Assembly: GCA_031425655.1 (NCBI GenBank)
Contig: JANPJS010000169.1
Location: forward strand, 1-21,231
Length of the DNA stretch: 21,231 nucleotides
Direction of reading: 5' to 3'
Origin: Abditibacteriaceae bacterium
GTDB taxonomy: Bacteria > Armatimonadota > Abditibacteriia > Abditibacteriales > Abditibacteriaceae
Below are positions 2,923 to 17,235 of this stretch, one piece after another. The first letter of the stretch is position 1, and every line of letters begins with the position of its first letter. The position numbers and the translations under genes were made by a program. Below the pieces are notes generated by a model, which was not told the origin of the DNA, made no database searches, and saw nothing but the letters and a program-made list of their open reading frames with translations.

Positions 2923-4179
2923 ATGCGACGTGTGCGAATCGGCATCATCGGGGCGGGCGCTCTCACCGAGTGGGCGCTTTTGCCGGCCTTATCCGGCCCG
3001 GACGCAGCGTTGCCGCCCGACACCGGCGCGTGGTGGGGCAGGCGTCCCGGCGCGCACTCGGAAATTCATTACCAGCCTCCGGCTTTGCCCGATGTCGCCG
3101 CGATTTGCGATGCCGATGCGGCGCGCGTGCGCCGTGTGGCCGAAGCTGGGCGTGTGCGCGCCGTTTACACCGACTGGCGCCAAATGCTGCGCGAAGTGCC
3201 TTTGGACGCGCTGTTTTGCGCCTCCGGCCCAGACGTGAATGCCGAAGTATTGCTGGCGATGCGCGGCGATTTAGGCCCGCGCCACGTCTGGGTTGACGGC
3301 CCGCCGGCGTCCTGCGCGCAAGCTGCCGCCGACTTGGAAAAATTGTTGTCGCCTTCCATTTCGGGGCGCCAATTACAATTATGGTGCGCTCGTCCTCTGC
3401 GTCAGGCGGCGGCGCATCGCGCAGCGTGGCGGCTACTCGAACGCGGCTCAATCGGCCCGGTTTCGGCATTGTCGCTGCGCTGGGGCGCCGGATTATTTCG
3501 TCCGCGCGATCCCGCCGCTAACGGCAACGTAAAACCGCTGACGCCCGACGGCGAGCGCGCGTTAGCATCAAGCTTTGCTGCTATTGATTTGCTTTTGGCG
3601 TTCGCCGCGCCGGTTAACACAGACGAAAAAGTCGCATGGGACGTGTCGGCGGCGCCTGTCGCGGTGTGTGGCTCGGAGCGCAACGGCGCGGCCACGTTAT
3701 GGATGCATTTCGCCGACGGCAGCGCCGCGACCGCGCTTTTCGCGTCCGCCGAAAACTGGAGTTCGCCGTTGCCACGTCTTGAAATCGTTGGCACCGAAGG
3801 CCGTTCGATCATATGCGAAGGCGGGCGCAGGCTTTGGCTGCACGAGCCGCGCGAAGCCGCGCGCTTGTTGGAGCCGCCCGGTCTGGCGGCACAGATTTCG
3901 GCGGCGAATTTAGTCGGTGTTGCCGAAGATATTAAGGCGTTTTTGGCGTGGAGCGTGGCAAAAAGCCGCGTTGTTGAGCAAGCGGAGCGGCGTCCGGCGT
4001 TGGAAGGCGCGATCCGGGTGTTGCGCGTTTTAGAAGCCGTGGGCGAATCGCTGCGCACCGGACGAATTGTAGAAGTCGAGCCTTCCGGGCCGCGTTCGAC
4101 ACTCGAAGAAACCGCGCCGGTCGCCGAGCTTTCTGCGCCTTCTGTAATGGCCACGCTGCCGCTGGACTGGGCGAACTAA
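2923..4179 (+). CDS. Gfo/Idh/MocA-family oxidoreductase-like protein (~418 aa), divergent
   Basis: Start trimmed to ATG 2923 (MRRVRIGIIGAG, Rossmann motif). Also has VAAICDAD, YTDWRQML..LDA and LEIVGTEG. The canonical EKP position reads DGPP. Confidence 0.8.
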   Translation: MRRVRIGIIGAGALTEWALLPALSGPDAALPPDTGAWWGRRPGAHSEIHYQPPALPDVAAICDADAARVRRVAEAGRVRAVYTDWRQMLREVPLDALFCASGPDVNAEVLLAMRGDLGPRHVWVDGPPASCAQAAADLEKLLSPSISGRQLQLWCARPLRQAAAHRAAWRLLERGSIGPVSALSLRWGAGLFRPRDPAANGNVKPLTPDGERALASSFAAIDLLLAFAAPVNTDEKVAWDVSAAPVAVCGSERNGAATLWMHFADGSAATALFASAENWSSPLPRLEIVGTEGRSIICEGGRRLWLHEPREAARLLEPPGLAAQISAANLVGVAEDIKAFLAWSVAKSRVVEQAERRPALEGAIRVLRVLEAVGESLRTGRIVEVEPSGPRSTLEETAPVAELSAPSVMATLPLDWAN

Positions 4180-4362
4180 GAGTCTGTGCTCAAATAAAGT
4201 TATTTGGGTAAAAACGGCCCAACGGCAAAAAATTGAGTGGCAAAAAATAAGGGCATCCATGGCATTTCGGATGAGAAATCCCACTTTTTCACCATTTTTT
4301 GCCATTCAATTTTTTGCCACTCAATGGCAACGGACTGAATAACTCTTTTTGAGCACAGACTT
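4180..4362. mobile_element. MITE-like element (183 bp) with IS5/IS1031-type ends and TAA target duplication
   Basis: Perfect 14-bp IR AGTCTGTGCTCAAA (4181-4194) / TTTGAGCACAGACT (4348-4361), extending to 22/24 (4181-4204 vs 4338-4361). Flanked by TAA at 4177-4179 (the upstream stop codon) and at 4363-4365. No transposase ORF. Confidence 0.65.
4224..4325. repeat. Internal inverted array of 15-bp GGCAAAAAATTGAGT-type units
   Basis: ATTGAGTGGCAAAAAAT (4232-4248) is a perfect 17-bp IR of 4309-4325. Each arm has two GGCAAAAAA units 15 bp apart. Confidence 0.8.
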
Positions 4363-4365
4363 TAA

Positions 4366-4469
4366 GAATTTAGAATTGCGAATGGAGAATGTAGAAACGG
4401 CGCTGCGGCGACAAATACGCTTCTTATAATCTCCGATTTTCTCAATTCTTCATTCGCAATTCCAAATTC
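4366..4469. repeat. Inverted heptamer-array element (GAATNNN)x4
   Basis: GAATTTA-GAATTGC-GAATGGA-GAATGTA-GAA (4366-4396) vs the reverse complement of 4439-4469, GAATTTG-GAATTGC-GAATGAA-GAATTGA-GAA: 27/31 match, 42-bp spacer. Confidence 0.85.
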
Positions 4470-9498: not shown

Positions 9499-9753
9499 GC
9501 GGGGCTAATGCCCTCTTCCAAACAAAGTTTAGCACTCGTATGTTTGGAAGAGGGCGTCAGTCCATTGGCATTAAGTTAAGCGATTGCGAAACGTAGCTTC
9601 CCTCCCTCCGGGAGGCGGGTGCCCACTTGTGGGCAGGAAGGGAGGGCAAGACGGCGGCTTTGCCGCCGTCAACCCCCACCTAACCTCCCCCACAGGGGAG
9701 GAACTATGCTTCGGAACGCCTTAACTTAATGCCGTTGTCCGTTAGCCCCGCAA
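9497..9753. repeat. REP-like host hairpin interrupted by an insertion
   Basis: Perfect 12-bp IR TTGCGGGGCTAA (9497-9508) / TTAGCCCCGCAA (9742-9753), plus a perfect 15-bp stem GCCCTCTTCCAAACA (9510-9524) / TGTTTGGAAGAGGGC (9541-9555). Confidence 0.7.
9563..9737. mobile_element. MITE-like element (175 bp) with IS4-type terminal inverted repeats
   Basis: CATTGGCATTAAGTTAAG (9563-9580) / CTTAACTTAATGCCGTTG (9720-9737) match 16/18 with a perfect 14-bp core. The interior has several GC-rich hairpins. Flanks are degenerate direct repeats (CGTCAGTC / CGTTAGCC). Confidence 0.6.
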
Positions 9754-10376: not shown

Positions 10377-10441
10377 CACCACAAAGACACAAAGGCACAA
10401 AGAGCGATGAGTTATCTTTGTGCCTTTGTGTCTTTGTGGTG
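10377..10441. repeat. Perfect 27-bp inverted repeat built from three CACAAAG(A/G) octamers
   Basis: CACCACAAAGACACAAAGGCACAAAGA (10377-10403), 11-nt loop, then its exact reverse complement (10415-10441). Confidence 0.95.
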
Positions 10442-12040: not shown

Positions 12041-12964
12041 TTACAGCAATGTTAATACAGCCACAAGTATCGCCCAAAACAGCATATTTATCATCAATGG
12101 TTTGTCGCGCAATAATTGCTCCGGCTCGCCGCCGACTGCCGACGAATGCGCCAGCAGCAAAAACCGAAAAATGCCGTAGACCACGAAGGGTATCGTAATC
12201 ATCAGCGATTGATGATTGCCGGCGACGGCTGTGCTTTGCGATGCCAGAAAGGTATAAAGCGAATACGACGTGATCGTGAGGCCGGCGGCGATGCCGATGA
12301 AAGTATCGAGAAGCGGCACCGAATAAAGCGGCAGCACACGCCGCGTTGCTTCCGAGTTTTCGCCCATTTCCAGCAACTCCGCGCGACGTTTGCACAAAGC
12401 CACAAACAGCGCGAGGGTGAACGTGCAGAAGACAATCCACTCGGAAATCGGGACGGGAATTGCCAGACAGCCCGCCGCCATGCGCAGCACGAAGCCCGCC
12501 GCGATCACCAAAACGTCTACGATGACCTCATTTTTCAAAACGAACGAATAAGCCAAAGTCAGCGCGAGGTAACTTGCCGCCACGATAGGAAACAGCCACG
12601 CCTTCGGCTCCAAAAGCGCCACTGACATCGCCGCCACCAACGCAATAATCAAACAACCGACGATCAATGCCAGCGCGCCGCGTTTTGAAATGCGTCCGGC
12701 GGCCAGAGGCCGATTTTTCTTAATTGGATGCAATCGGTCGCGCTCGATGTCGCGCCAATCGTTGATAACGTAAGCCGCGCCCGACAGCGCACAAAACGCC
12801 GTAAACGCCAGCAATACGCGCAGAATTTCGCCCGCGACCACCAGACGATGCGCTGGATTTTCCAAGCCGCGCAAATGCCCGGCGAAGAGAAAACCGGCGA
12901 ACAATAGCCCGTTCTTAGCCCACTGCCGCGTCCGCACGGCGCGCGAAATATCTCGGAGACTCAT
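12041..12964 (-). CDS. UbiA-family prenyltransferase, decaprenyl-phosphate phosphoribosyltransferase-like (307 aa)
   Basis: RTRQWAKN, YVINDWRDIERDRLHPIKKNRPLAAG, YSFVLKNEVIVDV, KRRAEL, and multiple transmembrane helices. Confidence 0.9.
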   Translation of the reverse strand: MSLRDISRAVRTRQWAKNGLLFAGFLFAGHLRGLENPAHRLVVAGEILRVLLAFTAFCALSGAAYVINDWRDIERDRLHPIKKNRPLAAGRISKRGALALIVGCLIIALVAAMSVALLEPKAWLFPIVAASYLALTLAYSFVLKNEVIVDVLVIAAGFVLRMAAGCLAIPVPISEWIVFCTFTLALFVALCKRRAELLEMGENSEATRRVLPLYSVPLLDTFIGIAAGLTITSYSLYTFLASQSTAVAGNHQSLMITIPFVVYGIFRFLLLAHSSAVGGEPEQLLRDKPLMINMLFWAILVAVLTLL

Positions 12965-12973
12965 AAATTCAAA

Positions 12974-13415
12974 TTAACCGCCGATGAACGCGGATAAACA
13001 CGGATTTTTAAGAAGATTCCATTTCGTTCCATAATAAGCGCATGAACGGAGTCGGGCGAAATACATTTGCGGGATCGTCTTCGTCAAAGAGACTCCAATA
13101 TTCAACTGTGGCCTTATTCAAATTCCAGTCCTGCCGCAGCAATCTGGCGATGCGCTCCCATAGCACCTCATTGTGTTCATCAACCAAATAGTCCTCGTAA
13201 GAAGCGGTGATGAGTTCCATGAGGCAAAATTTCTCAATGTCGGTCAATTCAGCCGACTCGTAAACGTCACAAAATTCGGCGATACGATTCTCATCGGCCA
13301 TTTCTAACCACCAATCCTGACAGGGCAGGGGTGGCGGAAACTTCAGCAGTTGAGACAGATATTCGAGTGGTTTTCTTTGCTCCATCTGTGTTTATCGGTG
13401 TTCATCGGTGGTTAA
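12974..13415. mobile_element. Putative gene cassette: 32-bp inverted arms of 10-bp tandem units enclosing one gene
   Basis: TTAACCGCCGATGAACGCGGATAAACACGGAT (12974-13005) vs the reverse complement of 13384-13415, TTAACCACCGATGAACACCGATAAACACAGAT: 28/32 match. TTAA lies at both outer ends. Confidence 0.65.
13008..13385 (-). CDS. Hypothetical acidic helical protein, 125 aa (cassette cargo)
   Basis: The ORF exactly fills the space between the inverted arms. It is AT-richer than its neighbours and rich in D/E/W/Y (QDWWLEMAD, EKFCLMELITAS, TVEYWS, TPFMRLLW). Confidence 0.8.
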   Translation of the reverse strand: MEQRKPLEYLSQLLKFPPPLPCQDWWLEMADENRIAEFCDVYESAELTDIEKFCLMELITASYEDYLVDEHNEVLWERIARLLRQDWNLNKATVEYWSLFDEDDPANVFRPTPFMRLLWNEMESS

Positions 13416-13694
13416 AAGAGCTTGTTTCACCGCCTCAACCGGCACGCGGGCGAATTTTTCGACGTGGCCTAAGCGCGTCGGCAAGATGAAATTCAAAGTT
13501 TTGCCGCGCGATTTCTTATCCAGCGCCATCGCCGCGAAAATCTCGGCTTCTTCCGCGTTCGGCGGCACTTGGGTTGGCAATCCGGTGCGCTCGAAAAGCC
13601 GCGTTTGGCGCGCAATTAAATTATCGGCTTCGTCGGTTGGCATCGTATTAAGAATCTTCGCCAAGCGTGCCGCGACGGTCATGCCGCAGGCAAC
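13392..13694 (-). pseudogene. aroB: 3-dehydroquinate synthase C-terminal fragment (5'-truncated)
   Basis: (VACG)MTVAARLA...GLPT...MALDKKSRGKTLNFILPTRLG matches the AroB C-terminus after HGEAVAxGM. The N-terminal portion of about 250 aa is absent and a repeat element lies in its place. Confidence 0.85.
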
Positions 13695-13790
13695 AACGGC
13701 ACGAAGACCGCCTGCGCGGCCTAAAAACCGAAATATCAGGCTCCGCAGGGAGCCTTCGTGTCGTTGTTGCCTGCGGCTTTAGCCGCCGGG
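13683..13790. repeat. REP-like composite palindrome with truncated left arm
   Basis: GCCGCAGGCAACAACGGCACGAAG (13683-13706) / CTTCGTGTCGTTGTTGCCTGCGGC (13754-13777) match 23/24. Internal hairpin AGGCTCC-GCAG-GGAGCCT. The terminal hairpin GCGGCTTTAGCCGC (13773-13786) is present only on the right arm. Confidence 0.8.
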
Positions 13791-13865
13791 GCACTCAGGC
13801 AAGGCCTCGAATAATTCCTATGCGTTTGCCCTGCTCAGGATTAATGACTATTCTCAGACAGCTTC

Positions 13866-14771
13866 TTAGCGCACTTTCCGGCGCCGCCAAACGAGCCAGA
13901 CCGGCACGCTAACGAGCGGCAGCACGACAATCCACGGCAATATTGCGACAACAAGCAGCACGATGCCCTTGCCGAAGTCGCGCAGTTGGCCGAGCGAGCC
14001 TTGAAACGTCCGCGCGATTTGGTCGCCGAATGTGGTGGGTTTGGGCGCCACATAGCCTTTGACTTCGTGGAGCGTCACGGTGATCGTGGTCAGCGAAGTC
14101 ATGTTGGCCAGCAGGCGAAGGCGTCCCTGCATTTGTTCGATCTCGCCGCGCACCCGGCTGAGTTCCTTTTCGACTTGCAAAACTTCACTCAATTTGGCCG
14201 TAGCGCGTTGCAAGAGCTGAAGCAATCGCTTTTCTTCGACTTGTTTGTTGGAAATGCGCGCCTGAAGATCGTAGAATTCGGCGGTCACGTCTTGCGAATC
14301 GGTGTGCGTGGTCTGGAGTTCGCCGAGTTTGACGACGGCGTTCATAAAAGCCTCGAACTGCTTTTCAGGAATGCGGATTTTCCATGTGCCCCGTCGCGGT
14401 GTGCCGGGCGTGCCGCCGACGTTGGTTTCGGCGATGTAACCGCCGTGTTTTTTTGCCAGCGCCAACAAATTCTGTTGCGCCAATGAAAAGTTATCGGAGA
14501 TGAGTTCTACCGTCGCGGTGTAAATAATTTTGCGCGGGACGGCAGACGCCGCTTGAACCAGTTGCCCCGTCGCCACCGCCGGCGCCGCTTCGTTCGAGGC
14601 CGATTTCGAAGCGTCATCGCTGGCCGTTACTGCGGGTGCGCCGACACTGCCGGGGGCAGCAGGAGGCGACATTGCTGATTCCGACTCGCTGGCGCCGCAA
14701 CCGGCGAAAACCAGCAAAGCGGCTAAAGACAGGCCCGATAAGATCGTCGTCAGTGTTCGCAAGGCGTTCAT
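13866..14771 (-). CDS. DUF4349 domain lipoprotein, 301 aa
   Basis: Lipobox LLVFAGC, RKIIYTATVEL, GGYIAET, SQDVTAEFYDLQARI, VEKELSRVRGEIEQMQGRL, C-terminal transmembrane segment LPW...WRRRK. GGAG RBS upstream. Confidence 0.9.
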   Translation of the reverse strand: MNALRTLTTILSGLSLAALLVFAGCGASESESAMSPPAAPGSVGAPAVTASDDASKSASNEAAPAVATGQLVQAASAVPRKIIYTATVELISDNFSLAQQNLLALAKKHGGYIAETNVGGTPGTPRRGTWKIRIPEKQFEAFMNAVVKLGELQTTHTDSQDVTAEFYDLQARISNKQVEEKRLLQLLQRATAKLSEVLQVEKELSRVRGEIEQMQGRLRLLANMTSLTTITVTLHEVKGYVAPKPTTFGDQIARTFQGSLGQLRDFGKGIVLLVVAILPWIVVLPLVSVPVWLVWRRRKVR

Positions 14772-15819: not shown

Positions 15820-15937
15820 AAATTTTCAATAGAACACGGGCTTCGCACACGGATTACACGGATTTTCACGGTTTAAATCGAAAAAACCGTGAAAATCCGT
15901 GGCTGTTTCCGTGAAATCCGTGTTCCATTGAAAATTT
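15820..15937. repeat. Inverted array of CACGG(AT)-type 9-10 bp units without cargo
   Basis: Outer IR 15820-15839 / 15918-15937 matches 19/20. Inner IR CACGGATTTTCACGGTTT (15857-15874) / 15884-15901 matches 18/18, with a 9-nt loop. The element fills the ychF-AKR gap. Confidence 0.9.
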
Positions 15938-17075: not shown

Positions 17076-17235
17076 GCCCTCACCCCCGGCCCCTCTCCCC
17101 AAACGGCGGGGAGAGGGGAGCGAAAATCACAGCTTAATCGCATTTTGCGAAACGCGATTGAACTGAAGGTTGAGTCACCCCTCTCCCCGCCGTTTGGGGA
17201 GAGGCGGGTGCCCTCTGGGCAGGTGGGGTGAGGGC
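17076..17235. repeat. Paired CCCTCACCCC...CCTCTCCCC-N7-GGGGAGAGG REP-like element
   Basis: Perfect 27-bp IR 17092-17118 / 17178-17204, each arm itself a hairpin. Outer IR GCCCTCACCCC / GGGGTGAGGGC. Central imperfect hairpin at 17130-17165. Confidence 0.9.

Follow-up and report, generated by a model that had tools for sequence, protein, structure and literature searches.

A dispersed hairpin repeat at an aroB-ubiA junction encloses a gene that starts within the repeat arm

The window, by which we mean the whole 21,231-nt stretch of DNA that was analysed, contains an aroB-ubiA junction in which a 125-aa open reading frame, here called the cargo, lies between two inverted arms. The features of the junction and its surroundings are as follows.

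12041..12964, minus strand: UbiA-family gene (decaprenyl-phosphate phosphoribosyltransferase-like), the family-conserved downstream neighbour of aroB
12974..13005, plus strand: exit arm, an inverted copy of the entry arm (28/32)
13008..13385, minus strand: cargo ORF, 125 aa
13384..13415, minus strand: entry arm of three units of about 10 nt, source of the TAA that closes the aroB remnant and of the AT of the cargo ATG
13392..13682, minus strand: 3′ remnant of aroB, a 96-aa open frame that takes its final codons and its stop from the entry arm
13683..13833, no strand: another multi-copy palindrome, truncated, with inverted arms at 13683-13722 and 13738-13777
13834..13869, no strand: lone end of a third repeat family

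The arms form terminal inverted repeats of 32 bp, with 28 of 32 positions identical between 12974-13005 and 13384-13415. The cargo fills the loop between them to within 2 nt, the exit arm following 2 nt after the cargo stop and ending 9 nt before the ubiA ATG. Several features that had been read from the letters in the original prediction were borne out: a TAA in the entry arm closes the upstream frame (..LLTTDEHR*), the end of the same arm forms the cargo ATG 6 nt further on, TTAA is present at the outer ends of both arms, and deletion of the cassette in silico leaves, as had been claimed, just 4 nt between a stop and the ATG of ubiA. The cargo is also AT-richer than its neighbour (GC 46.6% versus 55.6% for ubiA; GC3 54% versus 67%). 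Scanning for promoters and terminators gave no signal specific to the cassette. In run X1, a Logan unitig equals window positions 12736-13833 with zero differences and, since this run may be the source sample, the match does not represent independent data. As for excised forms, the run X1 joints 13005-13381/13383 were rejected, the arm-to-arm matches fitting other copies of the repeat and the 37 letters between these joints fitting the copy on C308; this search used contigs, which cannot show rare circles. At least six further intergenic inverted-repeat families are present in the window (4176-4469, 9567-9733, 10377-10441, 13683-13777, 15847-15900 and 17092-17204), some with tandem arms of 7-9 nt and one containing a nested set at 4176-4366. 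The source genome (G000) is saturated with such hairpins.

The frame upstream of the entry arm had been taken to be aroB itself. This proved incorrect, as it covers only positions 259-342 of the 344 in the TIGR01357 profile, and an intact aroB lies on another contig (C34:19036-20124), ahead of an M16 peptidase gene. The remnant shares 89% DNA identity with the C34 aroB over their common part, with a dN/dS of 0.31 on 26 differences. aroB has been duplicated within the lineage, a 3′ remnant staying before ubiA and the intact copy having relocated, so that the arm now stops only a remnant, and translational coupling at the window locus would run from a 96-aa pseudogene remnant. Strain contamination is an unlikely origin of the second aroB piece, because the two copies have like depth (11.7 and 12.2) and the listed contamination is 0.45%. 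At 13683 the remnant is fused to the other palindrome, at a short near-identical stretch. Further upstream two repeat families meet abruptly at window position 13834, and the Logan unitig continues past 13833 with 799 other letters; the junction is possibly an assembly mis-join or a collapsed segment and, given this divergence, something other than the DUF4349 gene may truly lie next upstream.

Paired arrays of the same unit recur throughout the source genome. A regular-expression scan found 142 arrays of at least two units, versus none in one shuffled genome, and a weight matrix derived from 53 three-unit arms identified 95 arms (none in one shuffle). The arms are three tandem, non-palindromic 10-mers starting TTAACC, and by the strict matrix 72 of the 95 form 36 inward-facing pairs, with several of the 'unpaired' arms having a degenerate partner or lying at a contig end. 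At 28/32, the likeness of the two window arms is ordinary for the family (the mean for pairs is 28.4, and among unrelated arm pairs 25% score 28 or more). Loops consist of 7-81 nt of non-coding DNA in 30 of the 36 pairs (median 57) and 177-523 nt in the remaining six; their contents and lengths (7-523 nt overall) differ among copies, with no conserved interior. The six long loops comprise the window locus, one on C269 with two small ORFs, and four that, by eye, hold nested palindromes of other families (C16:581-821, C44:26297-26552, C107:3469-3829 and C296:3945-4354), from which it follows that loops accept insertions. According to a crude ORF call, which left six of the 36 pairs unclassifiable and misclassified the window locus because the remnant is short, flanking ORFs are co-directional in 24 of the 30 pairs that could be classified, against a background of 1315 of 2093, and the upstream stop falls inside the arm in nine of these 24 and no more than 15 nt from it in nine more.

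It had been proposed that the arms wire the cargo into the operon. The arm does supply both the stop and the ATG, but this is not specific to the cargo, since it is built into the 10-nt period of the arm. Units end in GATGA or GATAA, and reading inward puts TAA, TGA and TAA in successive frames; because each unit shifts the frame by one base, an entering frame is usually stopped, cargo or not. Read inward, stops occur in all three frames in 32 of the 95 arms (5% of shuffled arms) and in at least two frames in 83 of them (41% of shuffled arms), while an ATG lies inside 88 and 37 end in GATG. The missing Shine-Dalgarno sequence, previously read as a sign of coupling, turned out to be weak evidence at the cargo, because an SD-like word precedes only 27% of 2828 long ORFs (12% in shuffles), counts that are crude in that the first ATG was taken as the start.

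We found little to support insertion at TTAA with duplication of the target. The outer 4-mer is most often TTAA (47 of 95 arms), which accords with the proposal, but TTAA stands at both ends of only 14 of the 36 pairs and is the arm's own end. Three pairs that lack TTAA match as inverted ends, no direct duplication of 6-8 nt was found across the ends among the 36 pairs, and inverted similarity continues slightly beyond the 32-mers (3.1 versus 2.6 of 8; p = 0.03). The arm ends behave as part of the stem, that is, as inverted rather than direct repeats. Because TTAA reads the same on both strands, a former duplication of it could still be hidden in them.

The adjacency of aroB and ubiA is kept across the family, and the junction could be read in 24 of the 27 genomes of the family (not in G010, G017 and G038), the closest relatives being only about 70% identical. 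The tidy empty site expected from the in-silico deletion was seen in none of these 24 junctions. Arms of the same family are present at the junction in all four genomes of the genus (G000-G003) and in two of 13 genomes of genus g2 (G014 and G032), and in five of these six the arm extends and stops aroB, whereas in G002 the stop lies at the very start of a degenerate arm. Loops are short and non-coding in G001 (where the junction was read across two contig ends), G002, G014 and G032. The cargo was found at aroB-ubiA in G000 and G003 only, and in G003 an entry arm is followed by a frameshifted cargo homologue with no clear exit arm. Cargo-less alleles do exist, in that the same arms stand at the same site without the cargo, but the predicted clean, arm-free site was not among the 24 junctions. 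With arms in all four genomes of the genus and cargo in two of them, it is the arms that stay at aroB-ubiA while the content of the loop changes. A metagenome scan with ubiA yielded one locus, with an exit arm and no upstream DNA. Other inserted genes, without these arms, lie at the junction in four members of another genus (L014, L130 and L132 in G012, G031 and G037; L136 in G036), making aroB-ubiA a general insertion hotspot.

In trees of aroB, ubiA and both (22 genomes; G012, G015 and G037 omitted), G000 branches outside a group of G001, G002 and G003 with support of 97-100. On this topology the simplest reading, which rests on four genomes, is that an ancestral cargo was lost twice, though the cargo may instead have been gained independently or exchanged between alleles by recombination. 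The element itself appears to have been at aroB-ubiA since the genus ancestor. The short loops of G001 and G002 do not resemble the cargo (equal or better scores came from 48 and 55 of 100 shuffles) and so are not visible deletion scars; compared with GxxExxY DNA, the empty loops gave a few weak scores to flanks, likely from arm overlap.

The G003 loop, by contrast with these, holds a specific relative of the cargo: in frameshift-aware comparisons it scored 136 against this cargo and 241 against the homologue P0009, versus at most 79 for 137 other homologues. P0009 starts with MNTD, an arm-type start, and the G003 frame with MDTD, which places its arm ATG one unit earlier than in G000. The start of the cargo within the arm is thereby seen in two lineages, and that both are in frame via different arm ATGs suggests that the arm start is used. 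The G003 copy has seven frameshifts and a stop, versus two frameshifts each in aroB and ubiA. Decay and assembly error are not separable here, and since P0009 is open for 90 aa some of the breaks may be assembly error. Frameshifts in G003 (L023, L216) affect aroB, ubiA, ppk2, a response regulator and folP, as is typical of unpolished long reads, which makes pseudogene calls in that assembly unsafe.

Persistence of this kind could also be expected if the arms were RNA elements kept by the host as mRNA stabilisers, processing sites or translation insulators and spread by gene conversion, with an incidental cargo; the locus would then be one more copy of a common repeat. Such a role would fit the retention of arms at the junction across a genus in which ubiA genes are only about 70-76% identical, the bias towards co-directional junctions, the three-frame stops and a predicted RNA fold in which the arms pair. 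Yet the fold of the 491-nt region reaches only z = -1.7, three-unit arm counts range from 3 to 41 among five relatives, and the other 18 readable junctions have unrelated palindromes, other genes, short spacers or almost nothing, so that no specific element is needed there. We regard this account as very unlikely.

A second operon junction offers a parallel. In the source genome, folP runs into a stop in the entry arm at folP-folB (C269:1758-2344, L191). Two small ORFs of membrane type, related to each other and 75 and 82 aa long, occupy the loop; the longer begins with MDTD at an inner arm relic, and a search with this one of the two found only itself. The same arms with a short loop are present at folP-folB in G001 and G002, and only a relic in G003. 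Viral contigs gave 43 distinct arm matches, 24 with a partner arm, and in 20 of those the loop is at most 101 nt; a GxxExxY gene was found in none of the 24 partnered loops. In two viral contigs the loop is filled by a putative ORF that starts at the arm ATG, one of 81 aa (L146:898-1200) and one of 189 aa with two CxxC motifs (L179:1358-1991). Neither has a PHROGs match, and a homologue search with the L146 ORF recovered that ORF alone. In the viral contigs L182 and L189, it is a single arm that opens a long ORF.

The cargo belongs to a widespread unnamed protein family. A word-index protein search found one homologue, whereas a full HMMER scan recovered 652 representatives at E ≤ 0.001, with conserved QDW and YW motifs. 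No significant family was found for the cargo in NCBIfam, Pfam, PADLOC or PHROGs, and it has neither a GxxExxY motif nor a TIGR04256 match. The predicted structure is all-alpha (pLDDT 94); Foldseek returned no match to it at E ≤ 0.001, and the best VIA-align result (Z 8.0, rmsd 3.2, 91 aligned) was to generic helical repeats and is uninformative. To place homologues in their genomic context, 60 loci from many phyla were retrieved with a pattern from a narrower alignment (A2), a broad one (A1) having given no usable pattern, and the set is consequently biased to one motif. Neighbours were scanned at 46 of the loci, after 14 that were short or near-duplicates had been set aside. In three of the 46 a homologue directly follows an Rhs gene, with a gap of 17-46 nt, and colicin D or Imm9 neighbours occur at two more; the remaining neighbours mostly have no annotation or bear no relation to toxins. 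Among three Atlas clusters, one carries the automatic name 'putative CdiI immunity protein'. Orphan immunity proteins of polymorphic (Rhs/CDI) toxin systems are small, acidic and helical. The cargo is likewise small, acidic and, by its model, helical; it differs in that no Pfam immunity family matches it, no clear structural match was found and no toxin gene adjoins it at the window locus. From its sequence relatives and their neighbours, the likeliest identity of the cargo is probably that of an orphan polymorphic-toxin immunity protein.

These results bear on the central claim of the original prediction, namely that the locus is a transposase-free arm-cargo-arm cassette that inserts at TTAA with duplication and is built for translational coupling. 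Some observations are what such a cassette would produce: the tight fit of the cargo in the loop, the two lineages with different arm ATGs in frame with it, the prevalence of TTAA at arm ends, and the arm-started, loop-filling ORFs of the two viral contigs. Against this, the cargo is single-copy in the source genome, and its sampled homologues elsewhere are not arm-flanked: none of the 60 loci is bracketed by an inverted repeat scoring at least 14 (the window locus scores 22), and none of four homologues within the same family is arm-bracketed, one of these four having been read on the opposite strand, to which an inverted-repeat score is indifferent. Nor was the predicted empty site present in any of 24 junctions, the ends behave as inverted repeats, the upstream frame is only a remnant, and the viral ORFs lack PHROGs matches and, for L146, any other homologue. 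There is no sign that the arm-plus-cargo unit moves as such, and we consider this reading quite improbable. The related suggestion that cargo is exchangeable survives in a narrower form: loops can hold genes other than GxxExxY, but an arm-cargo-arm unit was not seen moving.

The proposal that similar arms flank GxxExxY genes was, on the other hand, supported in this genome. The source genome has nine TIGR04256 (GxxExxY) matches. The window's arm family encloses one such gene directly (C298:36393-36884), and on C126 another sits between two whole hairpins of the family; most GxxExxY genes in the genome are enclosed by inverted tandem-unit arms of other sequences. Inverted repeats bracket 26 of 29 sampled GxxExxY loci, versus none of the 60 cargo-homologue loci. 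The window arms fit the layout of these cassettes, with inward arms of tandem 8-10-nt units between co-directional genes, and the window copy, lacking GxxExxY, constitutes a non-autonomous, cargo-bearing copy of the arm cassette. A short GC-rich module recurs within one arm unit at the aroB end of G001 (L139), the folP end of G002 (L198) and C298 of G000 (L192), marking a sub-family common to the GxxExxY-bearing copy and gene-less copies. By co-location with the arms, the GxxExxY nuclease is a candidate for their driver; the different arm sequences around most GxxExxY genes of the genome, and the lack of such a gene in the 24 partnered viral loops, count against it. We take TIGR04256 and PF13366 (PDDEXK_3) to be one family. 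The available part of PMC3424549 lists PF13366 PDDEXK_3 with 'Unknown' function, and nothing specific to such arms appears in the accessible portions of PMC4679880 and bioRxiv 10.1101/2021.01.26.428298. A literature search, which fell short of most subscription papers and supplements, found no description of GxxExxY arm cassettes.

Other repeats of the source genome also enclose genes. Heptamer-armed inverted repeats (C74:24225-24832, C262:62-517, C92:12200-12637, C26:13314-13891 and C54:18914-19357) contain ORFs of 115-140 aa that presumably resemble four-helix-bundle (23S rRNA IVS-type) proteins. Further palindrome families (C244:30832-31272, C70:3268-3836 and C12:4653-5191) bracket a presumably DUF559-like ORF or Y1 transposase genes (RAYT-like); the DUF559-like ORF and the Y1 transposases are candidate drivers of these other repeats.

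The arrangement on C126 raises the question of whether the cargo was once flanked by two entire hairpins, either because it landed between them or because a second one arrived on its far side, with both inner arms subsequently deleted. Many ordinary genes in the genome have hairpins on both sides, the C269 loop retains an internal arm relic, and the two window arms are no more alike than is usual for a pair, all of which would fit such a history. However, no inner-arm relic is visible at the window locus, where the cargo spans from arm to arm, and relatives carry a single hairpin at the site, which leaves this route unlikely.

What is found at the locus is a real, well-defined hairpin repeat that holds a foreign gene started from the arm and has empty alleles in congeners. 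It appears fairly likely that a dispersed hairpin repeat, itself likely a gene-less form of the GxxExxY cassette, has stood at the junction since the genus ancestor and that its loop took up an unrelated gene. By this mechanism, the cassette in its usual form would contain a small gene for a GxxExxY nuclease (PD-(D/E)XK family), which may cut or spread the arms, and arms without that gene would be its gene-less form. AT-rich foreign DNA might then enter the loop by illegitimate recombination or repair, where a gene would find a ready start codon in the arm and a frame running into the arm would be stopped. Alleles in frame with the arm ATG could be retained and read on the operon mRNA, and the cargo may later have been lost in G001 and G002, leaving the arms behind. 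The loops are thus probably landing sites in which stray genes settle, and not parts of a cassette that moves along with its cargo.

A bolder version, which we hold to be doubtful, would make GxxExxY hairpins an integrase-free gene-capture platform, in which foreign DNA is written into a loop that the nuclease has opened, and the arms, with their three-frame stops and the ATGs at their unit ends, serve as a universal translation adaptor. If so, a promoterless gene, for example an orphan immunity gene, would be expressed at once from a housekeeping operon, and could later be replaced or lost with the arms remaining in place. More generally, if stray genes are routinely taken up and expressed in loops at operon junctions, such loops would constitute an overlooked entry route for orphan genes into core operons, one that would need no promoter, ribosome-binding site, integrase or transposase. 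The matched empty and gene-filled alleles at aroB-ubiA and folP-folB make the idea of loop capture testable, and the arms offer a concrete candidate substrate for the uncharacterised GxxExxY nuclease family. A practical lesson is that, in annotations, these arms alter the C-terminal and N-terminal ends of proteins (MNTD/MDTD starts).

Comparison with known systems sets the element apart from each of them in some respect. Unlike the GxxExxY protein whose gene is enclosed by the same arm family at C298, the cargo lacks the motif and has an all-alpha model. No cassette array of the integron type is apparent at the window site. The arms share terminal inverted repeats with MITEs and TTAA-target transposons but lack a conserved interior sequence and length. 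MITE-type repeats are described, in the available text of PMC3184786, as extending the 3′ or 5′ ends of genes, supplying a start (neisserial REP2) and bracketing foreign genes. The integron mobilization unit (IMU) and NFM2-MITE in that portion of the review (Delihas 2011, PMC3184786) have two whole MITEs around the cargo, NFM2 with a 5-bp duplication, whereas the gene at the window locus lies within a single arm pair and no duplicated target was found. GGGAATC heptamer arrays of Xanthomonas, as far as the accessible part of Rehm et al. 2015 (PMC4692102) describes them, occur as convergent pairs, 70-75 per genome; like our arms they are tandem-unit pairs near stop codons between aligned ORFs, and they differ in their 7-nt, G-rich units, interpreted as quadruplex-forming, with no enclosed gene or link to mobility noted in that part. 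REPINs are inverted doublets linked to RAYT transposases, according to the available sections of Bertels & Rainey 2011 (PMC3116915) and Nunvar et al. 2013 (PMC3686654). As in the REPIN/RAYT system set out there, the arms form dozens of extragenic inverted doublets that fold into hairpins and are mostly gene-less, a few copies flank a candidate mobilising enzyme gene, and copy numbers are lineage-specific. Their units, however, are tandem, non-palindromic and 10 nt long, rather than a short REP palindrome with a GTAG/GTGG-type end (PMC3686654, available part), and the enclosed gene is GxxExxY (PD-(D/E)XK) instead of an HUH transposase. When a cognate RAYT (Y1/HUH) gene was sought, none of the 95 arms was found on the six contigs with Y1_Tnp matches, in an assembly fragmented into 327 contigs. 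The element works like a REPIN, yet by these comparisons it departs from both REPINs and MITEs in defining features.
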